Assembly: GCA_030827135.1 (NCBI GenBank) | Contig: JAURFE010000005.1 | Coordinates: 66,257 to 130,256, forward strand | Source of the DNA: Vicinamibacterales bacterium | Lineage (GTDB): Bacteria > Acidobacteriota > Vicinamibacteria > Vicinamibacterales > SCN-69-37 | DNA length: 64,000 nt | Direction: 5' to 3' | Shown here: piece by piece, positions 5,247 to 64,000 of the stretch | Numbering within the stretch: the stretch's first letter is position 1 | Layout of the letters: every line of letters begins with the position of its first letter | Notes under the pieces: generated by a model | What the model was told of the DNA's origin: nothing | Databases searched by the model: none | Seen by the model: only the letters and a program-made list of their open reading frames with translations | Position numbers and translations under genes: made by a program

Positions 5247-5957
5247 GTGAACCTCCGGATCGTCACCTACAACATCCATCGCGGCCGGGGCCTCGATCGT
5301 CGGACCCGGCCGGAGCGGATCGCAGATGTGCTGCGCCCGCTCGACGCCGATGTCATCGCGATGCAGGAGGTGATCGGGCCCGGGCTCACCTCTCCCGGCC
5401 ACGCCGAAATCATCGGCGCCGCACTGGGGATGGGCTGGATCATGGGCCCCGTCCGGGAACTGCGGCAACACCAGTTCGGCAACATGATCCTCAGCCGTTA
5501 TCCGATGTGGAATCACGCGCAGCACGACTTGTCGTGGAAGACGTGTGAGCCCCGCGGCGCCCAGCGGGTGGCCATCGATGTCGGACCGGGCACGCTGCAG
5601 GTGTACAACGCGCATCTCGGCACGGCGCTGCTGGAACGCCGCTACCAGGCGGAACGCCTGGCGACCTGGGTGCATGACCGCCGCGTGTCGGAGCCCAAGA
5701 TCCTTCTCGGCGACTTCAACGAGTGGTCACGCACCCTGGCCGGCGACATCCTCGCCGAACGGCTCAACAGCATCGACCTGTTCCCGTTCCTGAAGCGCCG
5801 CCGCACATATCCCGGCTTCTTCCCGCTTCTGCACCTCGACCACATCTACTACGAAGGTGCCATCGCGGTCCGGGACGTCTCGTTGCCCACGTCCCGCCTG
5901 GCCAAACTCGCCTCGGACCACCTCCCGCTCATCGCCGACATCACCGTCAAATTCTAG
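5247..5957 (+). CDS. endonuclease/exonuclease/phosphatase (EEP) family protein
   Basis: N-terminus NLRIVTYNIHRGRG, then DVIAMQEV, LLGDFNEW and a C-terminal SDHLPL. GTG start lies 3 nt after the previous stop. Confidence 0.85.
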   Translation: MNLRIVTYNIHRGRGLDRRTRPERIADVLRPLDADVIAMQEVIGPGLTSPGHAEIIGAALGMGWIMGPVRELRQHQFGNMILSRYPMWNHAQHDLSWKTCEPRGAQRVAIDVGPGTLQVYNAHLGTALLERRYQAERLATWVHDRRVSEPKILLGDFNEWSRTLAGDILAERLNSIDLFPFLKRRRTYPGFFPLLHLDHIYYEGAIAVRDVSLPTSRLAKLASDHLPLIADITVKF

Positions 5958-5984
5958 GGTCCAGGGTCCAGGGTCCAGGGTTCA
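5957..5984. repeat. tandem GGGTCCA x3 + GGGTTCA (G3N4 x4, G-quadruplex motif)
   Basis: gggtccagggtccagggtccagggttca begins at the last base of the EEP stop codon TAG (5955-5957). Confidence 0.9.
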
Positions 5985-6010
5985 GAGGCCTTGGCATAAC
6001 CGGGATCATT

Positions 6011-6955: not shown

Positions 6956-7141
6956 ATGGCCGACCGTAAACCGTTCCTGCTGCGCATGGATCGCCAGATG
7001 CTCGACGCGTTGCAGCGCTGGGCCAACGACGACCTGCGCAGCCTGAACGGACAGATTGAGTTTGTGCTTCGCCGGGCCCTGCAGCAGACCGGGCGGCTGC
7101 CTGAGCCCCCAGCGGACCGCGGTCCGCGAACCGCGGACTGA
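6956..7141 (+). CDS. Arc/MetJ-type ribbon-helix-helix DNA-binding protein
   Basis: PFLLRMDRQMLDALQRWANDDLRSLNGQIEFVLRRAL has the Arc-like RHH pattern. Starts 15 nt after the SPFH stop. Confidence 0.65.
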   Translation: MADRKPFLLRMDRQMLDALQRWANDDLRSLNGQIEFVLRRALQQTGRLPEPPADRGPRTAD

Positions 7142-7152
7142 GGACCGCGGGC
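7113..7152. terminator. GC-rich repeat/hairpin cluster (GGACCGCGG x3, palindrome GGACCGCGGTCC) between convergent genes
   Basis: cggaccgcggtccgcgaaccgcggactgaggaccgcggg spans the RHH stop (7139-7141) and ends 5 nt before the converging stop at 7157. Confidence 0.4.
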
Positions 7153-11239: not shown

Positions 11240-11266
11240 TGCGGCGCTTGCCGCGCATCAGAAGTC
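11231..11266 (+). terminator. stem-loop overlapping the stop codon of the 8135-11239 gene
   Basis: gacttctgatgcg (11231-11243) pairs perfectly with cgcatcagaagtc (11254-11266), giving a 13-bp stem. There is no clear T-tract. Confidence 0.5.
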
Positions 11267-11415
11267 ATTGAGGATGGAGGATTGAGGATTGAGGATTTAT
11301 TGTGGGAATGAGGAATTGGGATTGAGGGATTGAGGGATTGAGGGATTGAGGGATTGAGGGATTGAGGCGACGCCGAACACCACAAATCCTCAATCCTCAA
11401 TCCTCCATCCTCAAT
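11267..11415. repeat. ATTGAGG-family element: 32-nt perfect inverted repeat flanking ATTGAGGG x5.9 tandem core
   Basis: Left arm attgaggatggaggattgaggattgaggattt (11267-11298) is the exact reverse complement of 11384-11415. The core at 11321-11367 is attgaggg repeated: five G3 tracts with 5-nt loops. Confidence 0.95.
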
Positions 11416-11430
11416 AACACGCTATACACC

Positions 11431-14031: not shown

Positions 14032-14414
14032 TGCGCGCTGCCCTGCTCGTCTGTCTGTGCGCCGCCACCGCTGCCGCGTGCGGCGGCAGTTCGACGCCCA
14101 CCACCCCAGGCGGCAACACCACGCCGACGGCCACCAACACGATCACCATCACGTCGGCCGGCGCCAGTCCGCGCAACATCCAGATCGCCCCCGGCACCCG
14201 GGTGACGTTCGTCAACAACGACTCGCGGTCCCACAACATGACCAGCGACCCGCACCCCGAGCACACGCAGTGCCCTGAACTGAATCAGGTCGGCCTGCTC
14301 GCCGCCGGCCAGTCGCGCGAATCCGGCAACCTCAACACCGTCCGCACCTGCGGCTTCCACGATCACGACAATCCCGGGGTCGCGAACCTCACTGGGACGA
14401 TCACGATTCGATAA
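14031..14414 (+). CDS. small cupredoxin-like lipoprotein
   Basis: Lipobox AAACGG and a Thr/Pro linker. A single beta-sandwich-sized domain with SHNMTSDPHPEH and TCGFHDH (a Cys-x2-His pair, no obvious Met ligand). The ATG shares one base with the upstream stop (TGATG). Confidence 0.55.
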   Translation: MRAALLVCLCAATAAACGGSSTPTTPGGNTTPTATNTITITSAGASPRNIQIAPGTRVTFVNNDSRSHNMTSDPHPEHTQCPELNQVGLLAAGQSRESGNLNTVRTCGFHDHDNPGVANLTGTITIR

Positions 14415-14566
14415 GGCAATTGGGCAATGGGGCAATGAGGCAATGGAATGAGGCAATGTGGCAGTGGGCCAATGATGAGTGTTGGGGTCGCGCTGTAGTC
14501 ATTACCCTATTGGCCCATTGCCTCATTCCATTGCCTCATTGCCTCATTGCCCCATTGCCTCATTCC
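14415..14566. repeat. GGCAATGR-family palindromic array
   Basis: ggcaattgggcaatggggcaatgaggcaatggaatgaggcaatgtggcagtgggccaat, then a centre, then attggcccattgcctcattccattgcctcattgcctcattgccccattgcctcattcc. Lies between convergent genes and overlaps the kinase stop at 14560-14562. Confidence 0.95.
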
Positions 14567-20063: not shown

Positions 20064-21211
20064 CTGTCTCCGACCAACTCTGCCAGGATCTCGACCGCGT
20101 GGTCGATCTCGGCTTCCGTATTGTAGAAGTGCGGCGCGATCCGGATCCCGGCTCCGGGACGATAGTCCACGATCACGTTCCGCGCAATCAGCGCCTGGGT
20201 CACCGCCGCGCCGTCCGGCACGTCAATGACCACCGACGCGCCCCGTTCTCCATCGCCATCGGGGGTATTCAATCGCCACCCCCTCGCAGCCGCCGCGTCC
20301 ATCAGCCGGCGCGTCAGCCGCAGGGACTTCTCGCGAATCGCCGGCACGCCGATCTCGGCGACGATCTCATAGCCGCCACGCGCCGAATACAGCGAGGGCA
20401 CGTTCGGGGTGCCGCTCTGAAAGCGCTCCAGGCCGTCGGCATACGCGATGGGGCCCGGTTCAAACTGGAAGGGCTGCGCGTGTCCGGCCCAGCCGACCAC
20501 CGCCGGCTTCAGGGCATGCATCAAGTCAGGCCGCACGTAGAGATAGCCGGCGCCCGGTCCGCCGCACAGCCACTTCACGCTGCCGCCGACCGCAAAGTCG
20601 ATGCCCAGCGCGGTCACATCCACCGGAACCGCGCCGGCCGTCTGATACAGGTCGAGCACCACCCGCGCGCCCACCCGATGGGCTTTGTCGATTACCGGAC
20701 GCACATCCTGAAGGTGCGCACTCCGGAACAACACGAGCGACAGGTTCACAAACGCGGTGTGTTCATCAATCGCGTCCACAACCCGGTCAATCCGTCCGCG
20801 CACGCGGTCGTCGGACGAGACCGTGACGACCTCGGCGCCGTACCGCTCGAAGCCGTGGAACAGATAGTGATTCGACGGAAAGTCCAGGTCCTGCACGACG
20901 ATCCGTCGCCGCGGACCATCAAAGGAAAAACACGACGTGACGATCGACTGCGCCACGGTCGCGTTCTGATGCATCGAAATCGTGCCGGGTGCCGCGCCAA
21001 TGGTTGGAGCCAGGAGGTCGCCGGTCACCCGGCCGACCTCCCACCACCCCTCGTGCCACGCCCGCACGCCACGGGTGCTCCACTCGCGCGCAAACGTCGA
21101 GAGATGGCGTTCCGTCCTCGCCGGCATCGCCCCCAGTGAATGGCTCACCAGGTACGTGCACGTGTCGAGAATCGGGAATTCACTGCGCCACGCCGCTAAA
21201 GAGTCACTCAT
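20060..21211 (-). CDS. kynU: kynureninase-like class V PLP-dependent enzyme
   Basis: Collinear with what I recall of kynureninases: DLYQTAGAVPVDV, FAVGGSVKWLCGGPGAGYLYV (PLP-Lys region), GWAGHAQPFQFEP, VIVDYRPGAGIRIAPHFYNT. Start ATG 21211 (MSDSLAAW); the track start 21244 lies in the repeat. Confidence 0.7.
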   Translation of the reverse strand: MSDSLAAWRSEFPILDTCTYLVSHSLGAMPARTERHLSTFAREWSTRGVRAWHEGWWEVGRVTGDLLAPTIGAAPGTISMHQNATVAQSIVTSCFSFDGPRRRIVVQDLDFPSNHYLFHGFERYGAEVVTVSSDDRVRGRIDRVVDAIDEHTAFVNLSLVLFRSAHLQDVRPVIDKAHRVGARVVLDLYQTAGAVPVDVTALGIDFAVGGSVKWLCGGPGAGYLYVRPDLMHALKPAVVGWAGHAQPFQFEPGPIAYADGLERFQSGTPNVPSLYSARGGYEIVAEIGVPAIREKSLRLTRRLMDAAAARGWRLNTPDGDGERGASVVIDVPDGAAVTQALIARNVIVDYRPGAGIRIAPHFYNTEAEIDHAVEILAELVGDR

Positions 21212-21221
21212 GGCGTTTTCT

Positions 21222-21376
21222 GTGGTTCGTGGTTCATGGTTCATCGGTTCATGGTTCAGCGGTTCTGTTCATGGTTCTGGGTGCCGGGTTCGTCGTTCAA
21301 GGTTCAAGGTCGGTTCGAGGTTCCTCGGAACCCCGAACCAGCACCATGAACCATGAACCGATGAACCATGAACCCC
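21222..21376. repeat. GGTTCAT-family palindromic array
   Basis: The 27-mer ggttcatggttcatcggttcatggttc (21231-21257) has its exact reverse complement at 21348-21374. The 90-nt centre contains further degenerate units. Confidence 0.95.
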
Positions 21377-21382
21377 GTTGGC

Positions 21383-23044
21383 CTAGCCAACGATGCGCAG
21401 CGGCATCGCCGTCGGCGCCATGACCTTGAAAATCGGCACCAGCGGCGGCGTGGCCGCCTGGCCGCCGCCCCGGCCTGCGCCGGCACCACGGCCACCGCGG
21501 CCGCCGGCCGCCGCCTGCGGCGGCGCATCGTCATCGGCCGGGCCCGCCGCGCGAGCGCCGGGGCGCGACAACCAGGCGTCCATGCGGTTCCAGTAGATGA
21601 CGCTGTCGGTGGACTCGGGCTCGAGCAGGTGCACGGCCACGCGGCCCTGCATCTGTGCCGTGCGCACGACGTAACTGCCGGCCGGGAAGGTCCGCGTGAG
21701 GTTCAGCACCTCGCCCACCTGAATCGTGGCAGCGGCGGCGTGGTTGTACTGCTGGCTGTAGGTGACCCCCGCGACCGTGTACGCCGCGATGTTGAGTGAC
21801 GACGCGGTCGTCAGCTGCTCGACGGTGATGTTGTGCCGGCGCAGCAGGGCCACCGCCTCTGTGGCTTCACGCGGCAACACATACGCATACGGACGAGGCC
21901 GGGAGATGACCGGCACCGGCTTCTTCATGAGCTTGGCGCCCTTGACCTCGACGATCTTCCGGTTTTCCCCCTGCCCTTCGCCGATCAGATAGTTCACGAG
22001 TTCGTCTTCGGCTTCGTACCGCACTTCAATCGGGACGATGTCGCCGGGCTTCTCGCCCAGGGCGATGGTCTCGCGGCGGGCACGGTCCACGGTCTCGCGC
22101 AGCGCCGTGCGATTGGCGCGCGACCACTCGACGACCGCCTTGTAGCCGAGGATGCCGGCCTTCACGCCCGTCTCCATCGGCTGCCCACCCGGCGACTCAA
22201 ACAAGATGCCGACCGAGTTGGCAAACGCGCCGTAGTTGCGGCCGATCCGCGGCTCGGTGCCGCCGACGTTCCACTGTTCCGCGTTGCCGCCCTGGTAGTA
22301 CCACGACCGGAACTGCTCCGCTTCCAGCCGCTTGTCGATCGCCGGGAAGATGCTCTTGTCGCACAGTTGGGTGATGCGCATGTCGTGCGCGGAGTGGCTG
22401 CCACACTGGTAGTTCAGGTTGTACGGAAACGCGCCGCCGTTGTGGCCGTCGATGAAGAGATACGGCTGCCACTTGAGCAGGATGTTCTGGACGTAGCCCT
22501 GGATCTCGGGCTGCTCCAGCTTCATGTAGTCGCGATTGAGATCCAGCCCCCACAGATTGCCGCGCGTCGGATTCGGCTCGGCCGAAAACCCATCGGGGTT
22601 GATCTGCGGGACCACGATGATGACGAGGTCGTCGAGATGGCGGTTGGCTTCGGAGTTCCGGTCGGCCAGTTCGCGCATCAGGATCAGCACCGACTCGCGC
22701 AAGGTGCGCTCGCCGCCGTGGACGCCGGCGGCCAGCACGATGACCGGCTTGCCGAGGGCCCAGGCTTCCCACGGCTGCGTGACGGTGGGGCGGCTGTAAA
22801 TTGCATACGGCAGCGCCCGGGCCGAATGGGTTTCCCCGTAGGTCCCCAGACGCATCTCCAGGCTGCGCGCCTGCAGGTCCTCCAGGTACTTCATCATGTT
22901 GGCGTAGGTGGTGTACTCGGTGAACTTCGACGTCTCCGCCTGTGTCCGCAGATCCGCCACACTCTGCGTCTGCGCCCCGGGCGCCGCCACCAGCGCACAC
23001 ACCACCGCCACCATCGCCGTCATCACTGTTCGGATTCGCTTCAT
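21383..23044 (-). CDS. M14 family zinc carboxypeptidase, secreted, Gly/Arg-rich C-terminal tail
   Basis: Signal peptide MKRIRTVMTAMVAVVCALVAAPGAQ, Zn ligand motif GVHGGERT (HxxE), second His in IDGHNGG, tail AAGGRGGRGAGAGRGGGQ. Confidence 0.85.
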   Translation of the reverse strand: MKRIRTVMTAMVAVVCALVAAPGAQTQSVADLRTQAETSKFTEYTTYANMMKYLEDLQARSLEMRLGTYGETHSARALPYAIYSRPTVTQPWEAWALGKPVIVLAAGVHGGERTLRESVLILMRELADRNSEANRHLDDLVIIVVPQINPDGFSAEPNPTRGNLWGLDLNRDYMKLEQPEIQGYVQNILLKWQPYLFIDGHNGGAFPYNLNYQCGSHSAHDMRITQLCDKSIFPAIDKRLEAEQFRSWYYQGGNAEQWNVGGTEPRIGRNYGAFANSVGILFESPGGQPMETGVKAGILGYKAVVEWSRANRTALRETVDRARRETIALGEKPGDIVPIEVRYEAEDELVNYLIGEGQGENRKIVEVKGAKLMKKPVPVISRPRPYAYVLPREATEAVALLRRHNITVEQLTTASSLNIAAYTVAGVTYSQQYNHAAAATIQVGEVLNLTRTFPAGSYVVRTAQMQGRVAVHLLEPESTDSVIYWNRMDAWLSRPGARAAGPADDDAPPQAAAGGRGGRGAGAGRGGGQAATPPLVPIFKVMAPTAMPLRIVG

Positions 23045-25486: not shown

Positions 25487-26377
25487 ATGGAACGCAAGAC
25501 GGCTGCTGACTTTGATCCGGAAGTGCTGATTCTGTTCGACGCCTACGTGCACGGCCACATCGACCGCCGTGGCTTTCTGGATCGCGCGTCCAAGTTTGCC
25601 GTGGGCAGCGTCACGGCGGGGATGCTGCTTGACTCGCTGAGCCCGAACTTCGCGGCCGCGCAGAAAGTGGCGAAGGACGACAGCCGCCTCAAGGCCGAAT
25701 ACGTCGAATACCCGTCGCCGCAGGGTTCGGGCACGATGAAGGGATACCTCGTGCGTCCGGCGAAGGCGGCCGGCAAACTGCCGGGCGTCGTGGTCTTTCA
25801 TGAAAACCGCGGCCTGAACCCGCACATCGAGGACATCACACGTCGCCTTGCGCTCGACAACTTCATCGCGTTTGCGCCCGACGCGCTGACACCGCTTGGC
25901 GGCTATCCGGCCTCCGGCGAAGACGAAGCGCGGACGCTGTTCGGCAAACTCGATCGGGCGAAGACGGCCGAGGACATGCTCGCCGGCGCGAAGTTCCTGC
26001 AGGCGCACGCCGAATGCACGGGCCGCATCGGAGCCGTGGGGTTCTGCTGGGGCGGGAGTACCACCAAGACCCTCGCATCGCGCATGCCGGACCTGGCAGC
26101 CGCGGTGCCGTTTTACGGGGGCGGCCAGGTCGCCGAAGCCGCCACGATCAAGGCGCCGATGCTGATCCACTACGCAGGCACCGACCCCCGCATCAACGAT
26201 GCGTGGCCGGCCTACGAGGCCGCCCTGAAGGCTGCTGGCGTCCAGTATCAGATGTTCATGTACGAGGGCACGCAGCACGGCTTCAACAACGACACGACGC
26301 CCCGTTTTGACGAAAAGGCCGCGGCCCTCGCCTGGTCACGGACGGTCGAATTCTTCAATAAACACGTGCGCCAATGA
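25487..26377 (+). CDS. dienelactone hydrolase family protein with Tat-like signal
   Basis: DRRGFLDRASKFAVGSVTAGMLL...AAAQ (twin-Arg signal), nucleophile elbow GAVGFCWGG, C-terminal GTQHGF. ATG 25487 follows GGAGG. Confidence 0.85.
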   Translation: MERKTAADFDPEVLILFDAYVHGHIDRRGFLDRASKFAVGSVTAGMLLDSLSPNFAAAQKVAKDDSRLKAEYVEYPSPQGSGTMKGYLVRPAKAAGKLPGVVVFHENRGLNPHIEDITRRLALDNFIAFAPDALTPLGGYPASGEDEARTLFGKLDRAKTAEDMLAGAKFLQAHAECTGRIGAVGFCWGGSTTKTLASRMPDLAAAVPFYGGGQVAEAATIKAPMLIHYAGTDPRINDAWPAYEAALKAAGVQYQMFMYEGTQHGFNNDTTPRFDEKAAALAWSRTVEFFNKHVRQ

Positions 26378-26407
26378 GGCAATGAGGCAATGCCCCTTTG
26401 CCTCATT
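26371..26407. repeat. minimal GGCAATGR-family hairpin (likely terminator)
   Basis: ccaatgaggcaatgaggcaatgcccctttgcctcatt. The 10-bp stem is aatgaggcaa/ttgcctcatt. It contains the DLH stop TGA at 26375-26377. Confidence 0.85.
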
Positions 26408-44521: not shown

Positions 44522-44558
44522 GGTCCAGAGGTCCAGGGGTCCAGGGGTCCAGGGGTCC
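44522..44558. repeat. GGTCCAGR tandem 8-mers x4.5 filling the boxC-boxB spacer
   Basis: ggtccagaggtccaggggtccaggggtccaggggtcc. Confidence 0.95.
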
Positions 44559-47182: not shown

Positions 47183-50100
47183 ATGACTGATTGCCTCTCC
47201 CGATTCCGACGACATCTTGTGATGGCGGCCGGTATTACCGCCCTGCTTTCCCCGTTTGCCGGCGACCTCGTCGCGCAGTCGGTTGGCACCCAGGCAGCGC
47301 CCCCATCCGGGATGCTGCTGAACGCGCCCACCGACCCCCGCCTGAAGGGCTTCCGCTGGCGCTCGGTCGGACCGACCGGCCAGGGTGGCCGCATCGATGA
47401 CCTCGCGGTCGTGGAATCCGATCCCAGCACCTTCTACATCGGCTACGCCGTCAGCGGTCTCTGGAAGACCGTCAACAACGGCGTGACCTACGAGCACCTG
47501 ACGGCGCTCCCGAACCATTCCGTCGGTGACCTCGCCATCGCGCCGACCAATCCCGACATCCTCTACGTCGGCAGCGGCGAACCAAACAACCGGCAGAGTT
47601 CGTCCTTCGGCGACGGCATGTACAAGTCCACCGACGGCGGCAAGACATTCACCCACATCGGCCTGCGCGAAACGCAGTCGATTGGCCGCGTCATCATCCA
47701 CCCGAAGAACCCGAACATCGTGTGGGTCGCGGCGGTGGGCCACCTCTTCGGACCGAATGAGGAGCGCGGCGTCTTCATGACCACCGACGGCGGCGCCACC
47801 TGGCAGAAGACCCTCTACATCAACCAGGACGTCGGCGCGACCGACCTGGTCATCGACCCGTCGAATCCGAACGTGCTCTTCGCCGCAACCTACGAGCGTC
47901 GGCGCACGTCGTGGGGCTTCGTCGGTGGGGGGCCCGGCTCGGGCATCCATCAGTCGACCGACGGCGGCAAGACCTGGCGCAAGGTGTCGGGCGGCGGACT
48001 GCCAAACGGCACGATGGGCCGCATCGGCATGGACTTCTCACGCTCGAACCCGAATGTGCTCTACGCGCAGATTGAAGTCGCGATGGACAAGGAACCGGCA
48101 GCGCCGGCTGGTGCCGCCCCGGCCGCAGCGCCCGCAGGTCCTCCGGCAGGCGGCGGTGGAGGTGGTGGACGTCAGGGCGGCGCAGTCCTTCCGCCGAACC
48201 CGCAGCTGGCCGGCATCTGGCGTTCGGCCGACAAGGGCAAGACCTGGACGTTCATGTCGAACGAAAACCAGCGCCCGATGTACTACTCCCAGATTCGCGT
48301 GGATCCAAACGCGCCTGACACCATCTATGTGGGCGGCGTGAACCCGCGCAAGTCACTCGACGGCGGCAAGACGTGGATCAACCTCAACGGCATGGGGCAC
48401 GTCGACAACCACGCGATCTGGATCAACCCGCGCAACAGCAAACATGTGATGTACGGCAACGACGGCGGCCTCGACATCAGCTGGGACGCCGGCGAGACGT
48501 GGGAATCCGTCCGTCTCCAGGCTGTTGGTCTCCCCTACCACGTCTCTGTGGACATGCGTCGCCCCTACTGGATCTGCACCGGGTTGCAGGACAACGGATC
48601 GTGGTGTGGGCCGAGCGCGCAGCGATCGGGCGGCATCTACATGTGGAACTGGATCAGCGTCGGCGGTGGCGACGGCTTCCAGACCCAGGTCGATCCGAAT
48701 GACCCGAACATCTTCTACACCGAGTCGCAGAACGGCAATATCAACCGCTACGACCTGAACACCGGAACCACGCAGAACATCCGTCCCCGTCTCGCGGGTG
48801 GCGGCGGGCGTGGTGGTGCGGCCGGCGGCCCCGGCGGCCCCGGCGGCGCCGGCACCTCCAACATCGTCGGCGACCTGCCCGAGGAACAGACGATGCAGTT
48901 CAACTGGAACTCGCCAATCCGCATCTCGCCGCACAACCCGCAGACGATCCTGTTTGCCGGCCGTCACGTGTTTGTGTCGCGCGACCGGGGCAACACGTGG
49001 ACGATGACGCAGCCGATGGGCAAGGGCATCGACGTCAACCAGCGCAACATCATGGAGCAGTCATACAGCCTGCCGTCGTGTGGACGCGGATCCGGCCCCG
49101 GCGAAAAGTGCATCCTCTCGAAGCACGACGGCTACGTGCAGAACGAGTTCGGCACGGTGACCGAGCTTGAAGAATCCGCAGTCGTGCCGGGCATTCTCTG
49201 GGCGGGCACCGACGACGGCAACCTGCAGGTGTCGCGTGACTACGGCAAGACGTGGACCGAGGTCGGCAAGAACATCCCCGGCGGCACACGCGAGTACCAC
49301 ATCTCGGGCGTGCAGCCGTCGCACTTCGACGCGGCCACCGCGTATGTGTCGCTCGACGGTCACCGCAACAACGACCACACGCCCTACGTGTTCAAGACGA
49401 CCGACTACGGACAGACGTGGACGTCGATTGCGGGCGATCTGCCGCGCGGCAACGTGAACCAGATTCGGCAGGATCCCAAGGCGAAGTCGCTGCTCTACGC
49501 CCCGGCCGAATACGGGTTCTACATCTCGCTGAACGAAGGCACAAACTGGATCAAGTTCTCGCCCGGTCTCCCGAATGGCCGCGTGGACGAAGTCGTCGTG
49601 CATCCGCGCGACAACGACCTCGTACTCGGCACACACGGCTACAGCGTGTGGGTGATGGACGACATCACCGCGTTGCAGCAACTCGCCAACGAGGCGCCAA
49701 CGGCGCCGAAGCTCTTCCAGCCGCGCGAAGCCGTGCAGTGGAAGACCGACCGTCGCAACATGACGGAAGTGCCCGGTGCGAAGCACTGGGTCGGCGAGAA
49801 CATGCCGCGTGGCACGGCGATCTCCTGGTACCTCCCCCAGGCCACGACCGACCAGGTGCTCGTGAAGATCACGAACACCGCGACCGGCACCGATGTGCGC
49901 ACGTGTGTGGGCACCGGTGATGCGGGCATGAACCGCTTCCAGTGGGCGCTCACCGGCAACCTGCCCGCGGGGGGCGGTGCCGGCGGACGACAGGGCGGCG
50001 GCCAGGCCGCGCAGGCGCCTGCGACTCCGGCCGGGCCGGGTCCGTGTGCGGCGCCTGCTGCCGGCGGCGGCCGCGGCGGCGGTGGTGGCTTCGGTGGCGG

Positions 50101-50212
50101 CGGCGGTGGCATCGGCCCCGGCGTCTACAAGGTCTCGCTCTCGATCGCCGGCAAGGAGATCGGGACGCAGACGTTCAGCATCATCGAAGACATCTGGTTG
50201 AACCAGAAGTAA
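47183..50212 (+). CDS. secreted BNR/Asp-box (VPS10/sortilin-like) protein, paralog of 36427-39096, with Gly-rich insertions
   Basis: Asp-boxes YKSTDGGKTFTHI, MTTDGGATWQKT, HQSTDGGKTWRKV, RSADKGKTWTF, KSLDGGKTWINL, SRDRGNTWTM, SRDYGKTWTEV, KTTDYGQTWTSI. AAGGAG lies 9 nt before ATG 47183. Confidence 0.85.
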   Translation: MTDCLSRFRRHLVMAAGITALLSPFAGDLVAQSVGTQAAPPSGMLLNAPTDPRLKGFRWRSVGPTGQGGRIDDLAVVESDPSTFYIGYAVSGLWKTVNNGVTYEHLTALPNHSVGDLAIAPTNPDILYVGSGEPNNRQSSSFGDGMYKSTDGGKTFTHIGLRETQSIGRVIIHPKNPNIVWVAAVGHLFGPNEERGVFMTTDGGATWQKTLYINQDVGATDLVIDPSNPNVLFAATYERRRTSWGFVGGGPGSGIHQSTDGGKTWRKVSGGGLPNGTMGRIGMDFSRSNPNVLYAQIEVAMDKEPAAPAGAAPAAAPAGPPAGGGGGGGRQGGAVLPPNPQLAGIWRSADKGKTWTFMSNENQRPMYYSQIRVDPNAPDTIYVGGVNPRKSLDGGKTWINLNGMGHVDNHAIWINPRNSKHVMYGNDGGLDISWDAGETWESVRLQAVGLPYHVSVDMRRPYWICTGLQDNGSWCGPSAQRSGGIYMWNWISVGGGDGFQTQVDPNDPNIFYTESQNGNINRYDLNTGTTQNIRPRLAGGGGRGGAAGGPGGPGGAGTSNIVGDLPEEQTMQFNWNSPIRISPHNPQTILFAGRHVFVSRDRGNTWTMTQPMGKGIDVNQRNIMEQSYSLPSCGRGSGPGEKCILSKHDGYVQNEFGTVTELEESAVVPGILWAGTDDGNLQVSRDYGKTWTEVGKNIPGGTREYHISGVQPSHFDAATAYVSLDGHRNNDHTPYVFKTTDYGQTWTSIAGDLPRGNVNQIRQDPKAKSLLYAPAEYGFYISLNEGTNWIKFSPGLPNGRVDEVVVHPRDNDLVLGTHGYSVWVMDDITALQQLANEAPTAPKLFQPREAVQWKTDRRNMTEVPGAKHWVGENMPRGTAISWYLPQATTDQVLVKITNTATGTDVRTCVGTGDAGMNRFQWALTGNLPAGGGAGGRQGGGQAAQAPATPAGPGPCAAPAAGGGRGGGGGFGGGGGGIGPGVYKVSLSIAGKEIGTQTFSIIEDIWLNQK

Positions 50213-50237: not shown

Positions 50238-50250
50238 CGAAGTTCGCAGG

Positions 50251-50289
50251 GCCGGCTGGTGCGCAAGCATCAGCCGGCTCTTTTTTCTT
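50251..50289 (+). terminator. Rho-independent terminator
   Basis: Stem gccggctg (50251-58) pairs with cagccggc (50271-78), followed by tcttttttctt. Confidence 0.8.
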
Positions 50290-51350: not shown

Positions 51351-52333
51351 TGCACGCGACGTGGTTTGATGGCCAGACGGCCACGCCTCATGAGGCCACC
51401 CTCAGCATTGCGCACCATCGCGTGCGGATACACACCGCACACGGTTCGTTCGAGTGGGCGCTGAGTAAGGTGCACCTCACACCCGAACTGGGGACAGCGC
51501 CCAGATGGATGTATTGCCCTGACGGCGGGGCGTGCCAGATCACGGACGTCGCCGCCTTGCGCGCCGCGCTCACGGCAACAGGCCAACCGGTGAGTGTGGT
51601 GACGCAGTGGCACGACGACATGCGCCTGGTCCTCGGCGCAATCGGGGCCTTGATCGCGGTCGTGGTCACGGCCTACCTGTTCCTGCTGCCTCCCGCTGCG
51701 GATGCCCTGGCGCGCCGCCTGCCTGACTCGGCGCTGGACATCCCCAGTCAGACCGCCGCACTGTGGCTCGAGGAGCAGATCTTTGAACCCACCCAACTCA
51801 CTCCACAGCGCATCATCGAATTGCAGGCGCTGCTGAACAGCCTTGAGCTGCCGGACGTTCCCGATCGCCGTCCCATTCGCCTCGAATTCCGACGCAGCGC
51901 ACAACTCGGCCCAAATGCGATCGCACTGCCGTCAGGGTTGATCGTGATGACCGACGAACTCGTGGCGCTGTCGACCGATGACCGCGCGCTGCTCGGCATC
52001 CTCGCCCATGAAGCCGGTCACATCGAGGGACGACACGGCCTGCGGCAACTCATCAAGGATTCGACAGTGGGCCTGATCATCGCGGGGTTGCTCGGTGACG
52101 TGAACGGCGCCCTGCTGATTGCGCCAACCGCTTTTCTCAAGACGCGCCACTCCCGCCAGTTCGAAGAAGAAGCCGACGCGTTCGCGATTGACGTGCTCAC
52201 GAAGATGGGCATCCCCACCGCGCCGATGGCCGACCTGCTGGCCGCCATGCCCAGCACCGGCCAAACCCCCGGCTATCTCTCCACGCACCCACCGACGCCG
52301 GAGAGGGTTCAGAGGCTAAAGCATAGGCAATGA
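51347..52333 (+). CDS. M48 family zinc metallopeptidase with N-terminal extra domain and TM helix
   Basis: HEAGHIEGRH (HExxH) and downstream EEEAD. The start overlaps the DUF898 stop (GTGATG). Confidence 0.85.
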   Translation: MMHATWFDGQTATPHEATLSIAHHRVRIHTAHGSFEWALSKVHLTPELGTAPRWMYCPDGGACQITDVAALRAALTATGQPVSVVTQWHDDMRLVLGAIGALIAVVVTAYLFLLPPAADALARRLPDSALDIPSQTAALWLEEQIFEPTQLTPQRIIELQALLNSLELPDVPDRRPIRLEFRRSAQLGPNAIALPSGLIVMTDELVALSTDDRALLGILAHEAGHIEGRHGLRQLIKDSTVGLIIAGLLGDVNGALLIAPTAFLKTRHSRQFEEEADAFAIDVLTKMGIPTAPMADLLAAMPSTGQTPGYLSTHPPTPERVQRLKHRQ

Positions 52334-52492
52334 GGCAATGAGGCAATGAGGCAATGGGGCAATGGGGCAATGGAATTGCCCCAATGGCTCAATGGGCGAA
52401 TGCAATTCCGGCAATTCTGATAATTGAATTGAAGCATTGCGGAATTGCCCCATTCCATTGCCTCATTGCCCCATTGCCCCATTGCCTCATTC
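52326..52492. repeat. GGCAATGR-family palindromic array (largest copy)
   Basis: Six units at 52326-52373 and complementary units at 52455-52491. The centre is AT-richer. Lies between convergent genes. Confidence 0.95.
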
Positions 52493-52493
52493 T

Positions 52494-53201
52494 CTAAATG
52501 GCCGTTTCCCCCGGCTGCAGTTCGAGCACCTCGATATCGGTGCCCTTCAGGTGCTCCTTGAGCATCGCGGGAGTACCGGTCAGCAGCGGAAACGTGCCCC
52601 AATGCATGGGCACGACCTGGCGGACGCGAAGCCACTGCGCTGCGATCGCGGCAGTGTCGGGCCCCATCGTGTAGTGATCGCCGATCGGCAGAAACGCGAT
52701 CTCGGGCTTGTACAGATCCGCGATGATCTTCATGTCCCCGAATAGCGCCGTGTCGCCGGCGTAGTAGATCGTCGGCATCCCTGGCTGACGCAGCACAAAC
52801 CCGGCTGCTCCGCCGAGGTACACGATCTGGTTCCCGTCGGTGTGACTCCCCGAGTGCACCGCATTCGTCATCGTCACCCGCACTCCCGCCACCTCCTGGG
52901 TGCCGCCGATGCCCATGTCGCGCACATCCTTGAGCCCCTTTGCTCCGAGGTACTGCCCCACTTCGTAGAGGCAGACGACCGGCGCGCCGGACTCGCGGGC
53001 GACCTGGACGGTGTCCCCGAGGTGGTCCCCATGCCCGTGCGACAGCAGAATCAGGTCCAGCGGCTGCACCGACGCGGCCTTCGCCCACTCCGCAGGACAC
53101 GACGGATTGCCCAGCCACGGGTCACACACAATGCGCGTGCCAACGGGGGTTTTCAGGAGGAATGCCGAGTGACCGAGCCACGTGATACCAAGTCCGGACA
53201 T
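52494..53201 (-). CDS. metallo-beta-lactamase-fold hydrolase (UPF0173-like)
   Basis: ITWLGHSAFLL and LLSHGHGDH (HxHxDH); 235 aa. Confidence 0.85.
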   Translation of the reverse strand: MSGLGITWLGHSAFLLKTPVGTRIVCDPWLGNPSCPAEWAKAASVQPLDLILLSHGHGDHLGDTVQVARESGAPVVCLYEVGQYLGAKGLKDVRDMGIGGTQEVAGVRVTMTNAVHSGSHTDGNQIVYLGGAAGFVLRQPGMPTIYYAGDTALFGDMKIIADLYKPEIAFLPIGDHYTMGPDTAAIAAQWLRVRQVVPMHWGTFPLLTGTPAMLKEHLKGTDIEVLELQPGETAI

Positions 53202-53227: not shown

Positions 53228-53338
53228 GGGTTCATCGGTTCATCGGTTCATGGTTCAGCGGTGCTGAACCCGGCACCACAAACCCGGCACCAAGAACCAA
53301 GAACAGAACCATGAACCCTGAACCGATGAACCATGAAC
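53228..53338. repeat. GGTTCAT-family array (degenerate) in a divergent intergenic region
   Basis: gggttcatcggttcatcggttcatggttcagcggtgctgaacc ... gaaccatgaaccctgaaccgatgaaccatgaac. Confidence 0.9.
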
Positions 53339-53349
53339 AGCCGTAAGAG

Positions 53350-54273
53350 ATGCCCACTTTCGATTTACCCCTGATCCGCGGTCGCCACCAGCGGCAGACG
53401 CCCCTGGCCAAAGAACAAAAGCCGGAGTGGCTGAAAGTCCGGGCACCGGGCTCTGAGAACTACGTGCGGATCAAGGGCCTGATGCGCGACATGGGCCTGC
53501 ACACCGTGTGTGAAGAGGCGCATTGCCCGAATATCGGGGAGTGCTGGCATCACGGCACGGCGACGTTCATGATCATGGGCGACACATGCACGCGCGCGTG
53601 CACGTACTGCAACGTCAACCACGGGACGCCCGAGAAGCTCGACGCCGACGAACCGCACAAACTCGCGCACGCGGTGGACACGATGGCACTCGAATACGTC
53701 GTCGTCACATCCGTCGACCGCGACGACCTCCCCGACTTCGGCGCCGGACACTTTGCTGAAACGATCCTCGCGATCCACGCCAAGCGCCCCGCCTGTCAGG
53801 TTGAAGTGTTGATTCCCGACTTCCAGGGGCAGGAAGGGCCGCTCCGCACCGTGCTTGAGGCCAGGCCGAACATCCTCAACCACAACATGGAGACCGTGCC
53901 GCGCCTCTATCGCGTCGCGCGCCCAGGCGGCAAATACGATCGCGCGCTCGAACTGCTCGACCGCGCCCGTCGATGGGCGCCATCAATCCCCACCAAGACC
54001 GGTCTGATGGTCGGCCTCGGCGAAACGTTCGATGAAGTTGTAGACGTCCTCAAGGACCTGCGCAAGATCGACACGCAGATCCTGACGATCGGCCAGTATC
54101 TGCGTCCCTCACTCGCTCACATCCCGATGGACCGTTATTACACGCCCGACGAGTTCAAGGAATTCAAGCGCATCGCCCTCGACCTCGGCTTCGGCCATGT
54201 CGAGTCCGGCCCCCTCGTGCGCTCGTCGTACCACGCGCACGAACAGACAAAATCGTTTGAAGCCAAGCAGTAG
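53350..54273 (+). CDS. lipA: lipoyl synthase
   Basis: CEEAHCPNIGECW (auxiliary cluster) and CTRACTYCNV (radical-SAM CxxxCxxC); 307 aa. Confidence 0.95.
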   Translation: MPTFDLPLIRGRHQRQTPLAKEQKPEWLKVRAPGSENYVRIKGLMRDMGLHTVCEEAHCPNIGECWHHGTATFMIMGDTCTRACTYCNVNHGTPEKLDADEPHKLAHAVDTMALEYVVVTSVDRDDLPDFGAGHFAETILAIHAKRPACQVEVLIPDFQGQEGPLRTVLEARPNILNHNMETVPRLYRVARPGGKYDRALELLDRARRWAPSIPTKTGLMVGLGETFDEVVDVLKDLRKIDTQILTIGQYLRPSLAHIPMDRYYTPDEFKEFKRIALDLGFGHVESGPLVRSSYHAHEQTKSFEAKQ

Positions 54274-54349
54274 GGCGCGCTGGTCTTGAGCGCGACTCGC
54301 CCCAGCCGACGATGGTATCGTCGTCGTCTTACCGGGCGGGGTGCGGAAC

Positions 54350-54544
54350 ATGAAGGAAATCCTTGATCGGCTCGATCGGATGGATGCGGGCTTCCAGAAG
54401 CAGGGCGTGCAGTTGGAGGCGTTGCAGGACGACGTGAAACAGGCACTGGAAGGTATTTCCGGCAACCGGAAGGTCCTGGATGACAAGTTCGCCGAGGTGC
54501 TGCAGAAGCTCGACGAGCGCGTGAAGCCGAAGAAGCGGGCCTGA
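54350..54544 (+). CDS. small coiled-coil hypothetical protein
   Basis: MKEILDRLDRMDAGFQKQGVQLEALQDDVKQALEG...KPKKRA. High GC3. A GTG at 54341 is also possible. Confidence 0.5.
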   Translation: MKEILDRLDRMDAGFQKQGVQLEALQDDVKQALEGISGNRKVLDDKFAEVLQKLDERVKPKKRA

Positions 54545-54573: not shown

Positions 54574-55206
54574 ATGCGCTCCGTCGTTCTTTCGCTATTG
54601 GCCGTCCTGAGCCTGGTACCACTCGGCGCGCGGCCACAGTCTCCCCTGCTCACCCCCGCCGCACTCAACGCGACGGCCCCGGCTGAGTTCGACGCGATGG
54701 TGAACACCTCGGTCGGCAGCTTTGTGATTCACGTGAAGCGCGACTGGGCGCCGAATGGCGCGGACCGGTTCTACAACCTCGCGAAGAACGGCTACTACGA
54801 CCAGAATCGGTTCTTCCGCGTCATTCCCCAATTCATGGCGCAGGTGGGATTACATGGTGACCCGGCGATCGCTGCCGCGTGGAAGGATGCAACCATTGAG
54901 CCCGACCGCGCGATCATGAGCAACATCCGCGGCATGGTCACGTTTGCGAAGGGCACACTCGCCTCCTCGCGCACCACACAGTTCTTCATCAACTTCGGGA
55001 ACAACTCGCGCCTCGACATCGACGGCTTCGCGCCGTTCGGCCAGGTCATCACCAGCATGGTGCTCGTCGAACGCCTCTACAGCGAATACGGCGAAGGCCC
55101 CGACCAGGGAGCCATCATCGCCAACGGGAATGCCTGGCTCGTCCGCAACTTCCCGCGCATGGACTTTATTCGGAGCATTCAAGTCAATGAGGCAATGGGG
55201 CAATGA
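54574..55206 (+). CDS. cyclophilin-type peptidyl-prolyl cis-trans isomerase, secreted
   Basis: Signal peptide. FFRVIPQFMAQVG and MVTFAKG...TQFFINF. The last six codons lie in the repeat. Confidence 0.9.
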   Translation: MRSVVLSLLAVLSLVPLGARPQSPLLTPAALNATAPAEFDAMVNTSVGSFVIHVKRDWAPNGADRFYNLAKNGYYDQNRFFRVIPQFMAQVGLHGDPAIAAAWKDATIEPDRAIMSNIRGMVTFAKGTLASSRTTQFFINFGNNSRLDIDGFAPFGQVITSMVLVERLYSEYGEGPDQGAIIANGNAWLVRNFPRMDFIRSIQVNEAMGQ

Positions 55207-55357
55207 GGCAATGAGGCAATGGAATGCCCGCATGGGTGAATGAGCCAATGGAATGGCCGTAATCACTCAATCACTCAATTACATTGCGGGAATTGCATTA
55301 ACCCATTAGCCAATGGCGGCAATTCCATTGCCTCATTGCCTCATTGCCCCATTGCCT
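55185..55357. repeat. GGCAATGR-family palindromic array
   Basis: caatgaggcaatggggcaatgaggcaatgaggcaatggaatg ... ccattgcctcattgcctcattgccccattgcc. The centre contains aatcactc x2. Lies between convergent genes. Confidence 0.95.
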
Positions 55358-55362
55358 AATTC

Positions 55363-63033: not shown

Positions 63034-63118
63034 GGTTCATGGTTCATCGGTTCATGGTTCCGGGTGCTGTTCCGGGTGCTGGGTTCCCCATGAACCATGA
63101 ACCGATGAACCATGAACC
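63034..63118. repeat. GGTTCAT-family palindromic array
   Basis: 27-mer arms at 63034-63060 and 63092-63118 are identical to those at 21231/21348. The 31-nt centre contains cgggtgctg twice. Confidence 0.95.
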
Positions 63119-63120
63119 AG

Positions 63121-63179
63121 ACACAGGACGTCCGCCAGAGCCGGCCGCGTCAGCGGCCGGCGAGGCGGACGTCCTGTGT
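63121..63179 (-). terminator. long GC-rich hairpin spanning the stop codon of the partial gene
   Basis: acacaggacgtccgcc (63121-36) pairs with ggcggacgtcctgtgt (63164-79). There is an inner stem gccggccgc/gcggccggc around the stop at 63150-63152. Confidence 0.6.
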
Positions 63180-64000
63180 CTTGCGTTCTCCGTTGCCAAG
63201 CGTCACTTTGAGGGCAGAGCCAATCAGGGATTCCAGAAACGCCGCACTGCCAAGTTCACGCGTGTCCAGCTCGGTCACGGCCGCGAGGTAATAGTCGCCG
63301 GGCGGCAGCCCGGCGACCACATAACTGCCATCGAGGGCCGGTTGTACGGCGTGGGTGCGGCGCGACCCGGGCCCCCAATGCGCGCGATTGGCCGAAAACA
63401 CCACGAGCGGGTAGGCCGAAAATGGCTGCGACGCGCCATCAAACACACGGCCTGACAACTCCGACGGCCGGTCCGTCAACGTGACCACAATGCCCGAGAG
63501 GTCGGTGCCGCCGGTGAGGTCCACGCCCTCGTCCGCGAGGTCGCGGCCGCCGAGTTGAATGGACTTCACCATCCAGCCTGTCCCCGGCTCGGTCGGCGAG
63601 GTCCGCATGCCGGGGAACGCGACGGCCGCGCGGAACCGCCCCGGCACCAGCCCGGCCACTTCAAACGTCCCGTCGGCCTTCACAACGCCGGACGCCTGCC
63701 CCATCTGCAGCAGGGCCATGGCCGGCATCTCGCGGTTTGCCGCGATATCCGCCAGTCCAAACCGGATATTGGTCAGCGTCGCGGGCGCCGTACCGTCGAA
63801 CGCGACGCTGCCTGACACCTTCAGGCCCTCACGCAGTTGCAGGCTGAGTGGCCCGATCGGCTGCCCATTCACCTCAACCGGTTCACGCGCCCACAGCAAC
63901 AGGGCATTCCCGTTGCCCCCCATCATGCCGGCCATCATCCCGGCGAGCATGGCTTGTTGCGTGGCCGCGCCCGTCGCGGCTGCACGTGTTCCCGGCAGTG
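63150..64000 (-). CDS. carboxypeptidase regulatory-like domain protein, C-terminal part (gene continues beyond the window end)
   Basis: The frame stays open to base 64000. GRFRAAVAF, PPGDYYLAAV, and the tail ...LKVTLGNGERKTQDVRLAGR parallel the C-terminus of the 3424-5244 protein. Confidence 0.6.
   Translation of the reverse strand, partial: LPGTRAAATGAATQQAMLAGMMAGMMGGNGNALLLWAREPVEVNGQPIGPLSLQLREGLKVSGSVAFDGTAPATLTNIRFGLADIAANREMPAMALLQMGQASGVVKADGTFEVAGLVPGRFRAAVAFPGMRTSPTEPGTGWMVKSIQLGGRDLADEGVDLTGGTDLSGIVVTLTDRPSELSGRVFDGASQPFSAYPLVVFSANRAHWGPGSRRTHAVQPALDGSYVVAGLPPGDYYLAAVTELDTRELGSAAFLESLIGSALKVTLGNGERKTQDVRLAGR

Follow-up and report, generated by a model that had tools for sequence, protein, structure and literature searches.

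The 64,000-nt stretch analysed here (hereafter the window; contig JAURFE010000005.1 of assembly GCA_030827135.1) has 65% G+C, encodes ordinary housekeeping genes and carries, at three intergenic loci, palindromic arrays built on the heptamer GGTTCAT. Elements of the window are labelled by their kb position, which makes these loci E21, E53 and E63, and L labels (e.g. L131, L172) denote loci of a comparison pool. E21 is flanked by an M14 carboxypeptidase gene (stop at 21383) and a kynureninase gene (start at 21211), both on the minus strand, and E53 occupies the divergent spacer between a metallo-beta-lactamase-fold gene and lipA. The 27-mer GGTTCATGGTTCATCGGTTCATGGTTC occurs exactly at 21231-21257 (+) and 21348-21374 (-) around a 90-nt centre, and again at 63034-63060 (+) and 63092-63118 (-) around a 31-nt centre; in E53 it is found with two mismatches at 53313-53339 (-). 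An earlier, sequence-only reading had reported both pairs, both centre lengths and a degenerate copy near 53 kb, and all of these are borne out.

Tandem Repeats Finder (TRF) detects arrays with period 7, 8 and 15 in every arm of the three elements, in agreement with the earlier claim that the arms consist of tandem 7-8 nt units. Predicted single-strand folds of E21, E53 and E63 reach −85, −59 and −56 kcal/mol (z-scores −9.0, −8.3 and −7.7), so each locus could form the long hairpin that had been proposed. Recurrence of the arms is beyond chance, with 27-mer matches in none of 100 dinucleotide-preserving shuffles, and the number of exact GGTTCAT modules is far above chance expectation. The description of identical 27-nt arms around unrelated centres stood in full only in its first part: the arms are identical, with a conserved module that is in fact 28 nt long, but the centres of E21 and E63 have subterminal GGTGCTG/GGTTCTG units in common.

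An exact 20-mer scan of Joint Genome Institute (JGI) metagenomes returned 71 stretches, dereplicated by flanks, which hold 34 flank-distinct inverted pairs (~30 distinct sites after merging orthologues) and many solo arms. With these sites in freshwater metagenomes, and a Vicinamibacterales metagenome-assembled genome (MAG), the motif is not confined to the window loci. A 28-nt terminus with sharp outer limits, GGTTCAT-GGTTCATC-GGTTCAT-GGTTCA, is common to all copies and closes them on either side as an inverted pair; in some cases its outermost unit is GGTTACT or GGTTCCT, and the flanks beyond it are unrelated between sites. In the interiors, units degrade to GGTGCTG, GGTTCTG or GGTGCCG, and centre length varies between 7 and 599 nt. 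Non-orthologous loci are similar for only 16-73 nt past the masked termini, and full-length similarity is seen between orthologues only. The pool also contains solo 28-nt modules.

Gene contexts, called with a crude gene caller based on third-position G+C (GC3), are tandem at 18 of 36 sites, convergent at 10, divergent at 5 and unresolved at 3, and the elements fill spacers up to 0-40 nt from genes. Density is ~39 hits per 3.6 Mb on contigs with at least one hit, compared with 3 in 64 kb for the window, which corresponds to tens to perhaps a few hundred copies per genome, an estimate that is biased upward. A looser scan of a genome collection with the pattern GGTTCATN{0,1}GGTTCAT gave chance matches across all phyla; a Vicinamibacterales MAG (L108) and an Acidobacteria gp6 genome (L116) are among the matches listed.

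The lipoyl synthase (LipA) encoded next to E53 helps to place the host. MAG GCA_041255685.1 encodes an identical protein, as do several European Nucleotide Archive (ENA), JGI and Logan freshwater assemblies, homologues at 75-85% identity carry the NCBI labels Acidobacteria or Vicinamibacterales, and the Vicinamibacterales MAG Co_metawrap_1169 has a locus with 92% LipA identity and an exact 28-mer element. Judged from these labels and this MAG, the host is a freshwater member of the Vicinamibacterales (Acidobacteriota subdivision 6).

Comparison of orthologous intergenic regions, a check suggested in the sequence-only reading, shows that a GGTTCAT copy may be present in one species and missing from another. 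At the E21 site, an element is found in the window, in L172 and in a third species (L205), but L206 (7 nt) and L207 (2 nt from stop to start) have none; the element therefore sits inside an apparent operon. E63 is present in the window and in the syntenic species, where the orthologue has a shorter centre, one degenerate arm and re-phased arms. At the E53 site, L201 has a diverged GGTTCCT/GGTTCAT palindrome, L202 an empty 23-nt spacer, L203 a palindrome of a different octamer (GTGCTCGG/GAGCACCC) and L204 a single (CAAATCAC)n array. Two window palindromes of another unit family, described below, vary likewise: E14 is absent at the orthologous L172 site, and in L201 a 12-nt gap takes the place of E55. 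Conversely, L131 has a GGTTCAT element at a site where 6 nt separate two genes in the window; on the far side of this element a remnant of the former C-terminal codons is left behind, and an inverted copy of flanking sequence adjoins it. Orthologous empty spacers measure 2-23 nt and hold no seed repeat.

Where a copy is shared, its parts differ in conservation. Contig Ga0194120_10000153 shows synteny with the window and 83.7% nucleotide identity to it, and across species at this distance the 28-nt termini are identical. E21 is present in both the window and L172 with re-phased arms, and its core (~77 nt) has zero differences between them (98.8% over 86 nt by BLAST). The segment 21287-21346 is the sole 60-nt interval at 100% identity in 3.5 kb, with flanking genes at ~84-87%; the core is not conserved in L205. 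Within the window's species, the only differences seen are indels of whole units (8 or 16 nt) in E52 and E55, placed in one arm or in the centre: three strains have a left arm of E52 that is two units (16 nt) shorter, and E55 differs between strains by 8-nt units. E53 is invariant within this species apart from one single-nucleotide polymorphism (SNP). Copies once present are inherited; most of their later change consists in whole 7/8-nt units being added or lost.

So, are these loci copies of a mobile element? We consider it reasonably probable, with moderate confidence, that all three belong to a dispersed, non-coding, insertion-derived 'foldback' family of Vicinamibacterales whose module is kept by a sequence-specific trans-acting factor. 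The earlier suggestion of a dispersed, homogenised or mobile non-coding element is thereby supported, given ~30 sites and presence or absence at orthologous positions. Insertion of pre-formed elements, rather than purely local slippage, is indicated by the ordered 7-8-7-6 module in both arms at ~30 unrelated sites, by the sharp outer boundaries, by solo modules and by the seedless empty orthologous sites. As the 28-nt module is letter-perfect across species ~16% apart while interiors diverge, a conserved trans-acting protein with sequence specificity probably recognises it. The protein may be a transposase or recombinase for which the repetitive ends serve as stacked sites of binding, in the manner of Foldback/Galileo, or alternatively a binding protein that imposes selection on the module. 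After insertion, unit slippage would be the main mode of change. A transcript across a copy would fold into a hairpin with a perfect basal stem of 21-28 bp, by its length a possible RNase III substrate or 3'-exonuclease barrier. In single-stranded DNA, the extruded loop may act as an insertion hot spot, as hinted by the nested REP sequences and the possible transposase remnant described below, and the elements also reshape gene ends by supplying stop codons.

Several observations weigh against this reading. Neither an autonomous copy nor a candidate transposase was found, nor were arm pairs 1-5 kb apart. There is no consistent target-site duplication, the single possible case being 9 bp (CCC[T/A]GCGCG) at L131. 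No two non-orthologous loci have a full-length copy in common, so recent transposition is not demonstrated. Comparison of filled and empty sites alone leaves gains inseparable from precise losses, and the different unit family in the orthologous E53 spacer of L203 fits local turnover as well as repeated insertion.

The arms are also polarised. Of 51 inverted pairs of 7/8-nt arrays, 50 have the G-rich arm 5' and the C-rich arm 3', among them all 20 scorable rows of families other than GGTTCAT, rows that overlap in part and represent ~14 independent loci. If polarity is shared by descent within each family, the independent sample comprises only ~5-6 families; a G-rich-arm-first rule across unit families is hence only suggestive.

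These data bear on two accounts that do without mobility. The elements could be cis-acting binding platforms or RNA hairpins that spread through selection, with functions such as intercistronic RNase III processing, protection of mRNA 3' ends, transcriptional insulation or nucleoid-protein binding. Such roles would suit termini that stay identical between species ~16% apart in nucleotide sequence, the perfectly conserved interval in the E21 core, the polarity seen in several unit families, and a spacer that holds palindromes of different units in different species, as if the design were kept; comparable Xanthomonas repeats are, moreover, mostly transcribed (PMC4692102). We nevertheless think it unlikely, since the gene contexts are a mixture of tandem, convergent and divergent, the copies are dispensable at orthologous sites of sister species even inside an apparent operon, and the E21 core is not conserved in L205. 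Copies also lack a U-tract, though canonical terminators exist at 50248-50281 and in L198, and the unit families are unrelated in sequence, so that one binding protein cannot account for all of them. A local mutational by-product, in which replicase slippage and template switching symmetrise palindromes in place with no transfer between loci, is less probable still. It would explain strain differences that consist of whole-unit indels in one arm or the centre, the unit turnover at the E53 spacer and the inverted flanking copy beside the L131 element, and would accord with the excess of heptameric simple sequence repeats (SSRs) in many bacteria, for which polymerase slippage has been proposed (PMC4692102). 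The ordered 7-8-7-6 module speaks against it, down to its single inserted C in both arms at ~30 unrelated sites, as do the ordered ~43-nt terminus of a second family (GGCAATGR), the empty sites without a proto-repeat and the sharp outer boundaries.

Two further explanations concern the kind of repeat and the reality of the sequence. Repetitive extragenic palindromic (REP) sequences, bacterial interspersed mosaic elements (BIMEs) and REP doublets forming hairpins (REPINs) resemble the GGTTCAT elements in being short, extragenic and high-copy, in occurring singly, in tandem or as inverted hairpin pairs, and in abutting stop codons (PMC3733652, PMC3116915). The inverted GGTTCAT pairs recall REPINs, and these genomes carry a clearly active substrate family of REP-associated tyrosine transposases (RAYTs), found in physical association with the elements. 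However, a REP unit is an imperfect palindrome of 20-40 nt with a GTAG or CGTC tag, and the 28-mer has neither feature: it lacks an internal palindrome (−1 kcal/mol vs −7.9 for the co-resident REP GTAGGGCGCGCTGGTCTTGAGCGCGAC), and no GTAG or CGTC tag was found at the ends or flanks of ~30 GGTTCAT sites. The REPs are, besides, a family of their own, with copies inserted in the elements or next to them. Movement of GGTTCAT copies as REP/BIME-type elements by a RAYT (Y1) transposase is very improbable. REP/BIME and the cyanobacterial heptamers had been named as the nearest analogies, which they remain; the REP definition fails, and a true REP family coexists. Assembly or chimera artefacts of short-read metagenomes at low-complexity sequence deserve mention, as repeats of this kind can mislead assemblers. 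E53 and E63 recur, with the same flanks, in independently assembled ENA, NCBI and JGI strains from different samples (the E53 SNP is in one assembly), short Logan contigs of the same population also have the lipA gene next to E53, and orthologous copies are conserved in other species. Such an artefact is excluded.

The coexisting REP family has the form (TAC)GTAGGGC[GC]CGCTG-N5-7-AGCG[GC]GCC, with 55 dereplicated copies in the pool; GTAG precedes 62 of the 184 strand-wise matches of the GGCGCGCT..AGCGCGCC palindrome. Some GTAG-REPs stand alone, others are lined up in tandem (five in L142) or paired in inverted, REPIN-like fashion, and the TAG is often the stop codon of the upstream gene. The family would imply a RAYT-type system in these Vicinamibacterales. 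GTAG-REPs lie just outside GGTTCAT arms or nested in centres (L164, L179, L139, L142, L177), which explains part of the centre heterogeneity and sets the GGTTCAT elements apart as a separate entity.

Three long centres have other contents. One holds a 23S_rRNA_IVP gene (PF05635, 1.2e-21). L188 has the ancestral layout of this locus, a solo arm, an intact gene and a complete element, and L191 is a deletion derivative; the gene thus appears as cargo because solo arm, gene and full element were merged by deletion. Another has a GntR gene (PF00392, 4.9e-17) between its arms, a single locus that is conserved in two species and has its own operator-like palindrome. The last is the 505-nt centre of L140 (5081-5585; also in L155 and L187), with two out-of-frame ORF fragments (…RRGQLLEMLTAERNRL… and …AAMRKLLTILNAMV…) and no Pfam hit. 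By eye only, we take these fragments to resemble a decayed IS110-family transposase. L198, orthologous to the L140 site, has a solo 28-mer only. After examination of these three centres, the idea that the hairpins generally carry cargo genes was rejected.

What, then, are the nearest known systems? Rfam returned no hits in the window at gathering thresholds, and a permissive search gave one spurious miRNA hairpin (26 bits vs a cut-off of 79). An intrinsic terminator was rejected, as no U-tract follows the arms and E53 lies between divergent starts. The earlier exclusion of a CRISPR array, an insertion sequence (IS) element or a tRNA holds: arms are inverted rather than direct, there is one pair per locus, and no Rfam family matches. 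By-eye likenesses to a tRNA T-loop, in which position 58 does not fit, and to telomere-like repeats and the anti-Shine-Dalgarno sequence, for which no supporting feature was found, were dropped. MITEs (miniature inverted-repeat transposable elements) are similar in being non-coding, 85-230 nt long and optional between species, with exact terminal inverted repeats (TIRs) of 21-28 nt; unlike MITEs, GGTTCAT copies have no consistent target-site duplication, common interior or common length, and no parent IS with matching ends was seen. Families of intergenic tandem heptamers spread around the chromosome are also a feature of the short tandemly repeated repetitive (STRR) sequences, which were reportedly described in heterocystous cyanobacteria by Mazel and colleagues in 1990. 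STRRs are defined as direct arrays, so a paired inverted form with conserved termini falls outside the definition. Calothrix heptanucleotides are mentioned in PMC4692102, and the TAACTGA arrays of Beggiatoa (PMC4679880) are a related phenomenon.

The closest precedent is in Xanthomonas, whose GGGAATC arrays, like the GGGGAYT arrays of Nostoc, are tandem 7-nt units, mostly non-coding and near gene ends (PMC4692102). Rehm et al. (2015; PMC4692102) counted ~180-185 GGGAATC heptamer arrays per Xanthomonas genome, with 70-75 convergent inverted pairs in which the G-rich array comes first. Their sites are occupied in sister species too, with strong variation in length and sequence, and the arrays are depleted between divergent genes; function was given as unknown. 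The elements described here likewise have at least two head-to-tail 7/8-nt units, dispersal near gene ends, variation in unit number and G-first inverted pairs, and the GAGGATT/GAGGGATT and GGCAATGGGG families of the window, which include G3-4 tracts, resemble the Xanthomonas/Nostoc units. They differ in their host phylum, Acidobacteriota; in that GGTTCAT has only GG runs, so a G-quadruplex (G4) rationale is inapplicable; and in the ordered 28-nt terminal module with a heterogeneous centre and nested REPs, which is unreported for Xanthomonas. The claim that the design cannot be assigned to a described family therefore needs qualifying, as inverted heptamer pairs were known; for Vicinamibacteria, we found no account of such repeats in the literature. 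The design is not new in kind. New are the phylum, a GGTTCAT family without G4 potential, a TIR-like module conserved across species, empty and filled sites, and REP nesting.

In architecture, the elements recall the eukaryotic Foldback/Galileo transposons (PMC3573991, PMC3688188), which also have long inverted ends of short tandem repeats, variable arms and a variable loop that sometimes holds unrelated DNA. The internally repetitive TIRs of Galileo provide multiple transposase-binding sites (PMC3688188, PMC3573991). The analogy is one of architecture only, as Foldback/Galileo elements are kilobase-scale and have known autonomous copies that encode a transposase. By extension, one might envisage bacterial counterparts of Foldback, a mobile class in several phyla whose heptamer ends are stacked sites for a recombinase and whose G-rich arm universally comes first. 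It could include the Acidobacteriota elements, the Xanthomonas GGGAATC pairs, cyanobacterial STRR pairs and possibly Marinimicrobia arrays in L029, a proposal that we regard as doubtful. Were it true, it would give a mechanistic cause to the excess of heptameric SSRs, which is unexplained in many bacterial genomes; studies of the Xanthomonas/Nostoc arrays and of STRRs ended without a function. The present lineage is an informative data set, with a trackable module, empty and filled sites, unit slippage, arm polarity and interplay with REPs.

An inverted-repeat scan of the window uncovered five more palindromes with arms of tandem 7-8 nt units, of other unit sequences (Table 1). The sequence-only reading had listed the three GGTTCAT loci correctly but missed these five of the same design. 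About one fifth of the window's intergenic spacers hold 7-8 nt unit arrays. Direct reading of E14, E52 and E55 gives the GGCAATGR family an ordered terminus of ~43 nt, ATTCCATTGCCTCATTGCCYCATTGCCCCATTGCCTMATTC. A hybrid element occurs at L149 144-260 and L194 6201-6320, in which AATCCTC units come after the canonical GGTTCAT arm and its GGTGCTG units; these AATCCTC units, the C-rich arm of the GAGGATT family, replace the complementary ATGAACC arm, so arms from different families can be juxtaposed.

The arrays affect both annotation and the evolution of genes, as neighbouring genes receive stop codons and spurious in-frame starts from them, and a GGTTCAT element interrupts a two-gene unit that is uninterrupted in sister species. 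The last unit of E14 supplies the stop codon of a galactokinase-like gene (14560-14562), and the stop codon of a peptidyl-prolyl isomerase (PPIase) gene (55204-55206) lies inside the left arm of E55. In both genes, array units displace ancestral C-terminal residues. The outermost ATGAACC of E21 provides an in-frame upstream ATG (21242-21244) for the kynureninase gene in the window species and in L172. Mechanical ORF calling takes this ATG (MNHEPRTTENA...) as the kynureninase start, and the varying lengths of homologues (382-402 aa) suggest that mis-annotation of the start is common.

Table 1. Features of the window and of pool loci named in the text.
Feature	Sequence	Position	Strand	Remarks
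E21, GGTTCAT foldback element	window	21224..21377	.	spacer between two minus-strand genes
E21 left terminal module	window	21231..21258	+	28 nt, GGTTCAT-GGTTCATC-GGTTCAT-GGTTCA
E21 right terminal module	window	21347..21374	-	exact reverse complement of E21 left module
E21 core	window	21271..21347 (approximate)	.	degenerate heptamers and central hairpin
E53, degenerate GGTTCAT family member	window	53228..53339	.	
E63, GGTTCAT element	window	63034..63118	.	perfect 27-nt arms; centre of GGTGCTG-type units
GAGGATT/GAGGGATT arrays	window	11264..11418	.	facing AATCCTC arrays
E14, GGCAATGR octamer palindrome	window	14411..14564	.	
Miniature GGCAATGA hairpin	window	26372..26407	.	CAATGAGGCAATGAGGCAATG ... 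GCCTCATT; grouped with GGCAATGR
E52, GGCAATGR-family palindrome	window	52324..52500	.	
E55, GGCAATGR-family palindrome	window	55182..55361	.	
Solo heptamer array (GGTCCAG)n	window	5956..5985	+	immediately follows a stop codon
Solo heptamer array (GCGGACC)n	window	7112..7150	+	
Solo octamer array (GGTCCAGG)n	window	44522..44558	+	GGTCCAG[G] type; between two minus-strand genes
GTAG-REP	window	54270-54296		after lipA
GTAG-REPs	L142	2579-2725		
GTAG-REPs	L136	2965-3093 and 8517-8644		
GTAG-REPs	L132	4574-4744		
Other-unit palindromes/arrays	L201	9909-9989		
Other-unit palindromes/arrays	L203	9088-9206 and 9934-9999		
Other-unit palindromes/arrays	L204	8438-8623 and 9957-9982		
Arrays	L029	959-1180 and 1607-1989		Neomarinimicrobiota MAG
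Array	L006	6671-6760		Trinickia
Arrays	L116	2742-2820 and 4545-4610		Acidobacteria gp6

The arrays listed for L201, L203 and L204, which lie partly at the E53 spacer, are built from GTGCTCGG/GAGCACCC, GATTGGC, ATCATCA, CAAATCAC and GGTTCCT units. The loose genome scan brought up, as by-catch, long heptamer or octamer arrays in other phyla. In L029, ~430 nt separate an array of G-rich GGTTCAAG/GGCTCAGG units from one of C-rich TGAACCCA units, again with G-first polarity.

E63 is directly adjoined by a 63-nt, two-tier perfect hairpin at 63119-63181 (−39 kcal/mol, z = −10.7), whose apical loop region holds the stop codon (63150-63152) of a CarboxypepD_reg-domain gene. The L136 orthologue keeps this hairpin, with compensatory double changes at two base pairs (A-T to G-C, C-G to T-A); as a dispersed repeat the hairpin was rejected, being locus-specific. 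In the interval between lipA and the PPIase gene, a small ORF at 54341-54544 (67 aa) has 64, 68 and 75 aa in near-identical strains (L120-L123) and is missing from L201, in which lipA and the PPIase gene adjoin each other. A (CGG)n / GGCGGCGGTGGC 12-nt repeat at 50062-50123 encodes a glycine-rich tail at the 3' end of a 1015-aa BNR/Sortilin-domain gene. The canonical terminator in L198 directly follows its solo arm; of canonical intrinsic terminators in the final 14 kb of the window, the one at 50248-50281, after the BNR/Sortilin-domain gene, was the sole convincing example seen.

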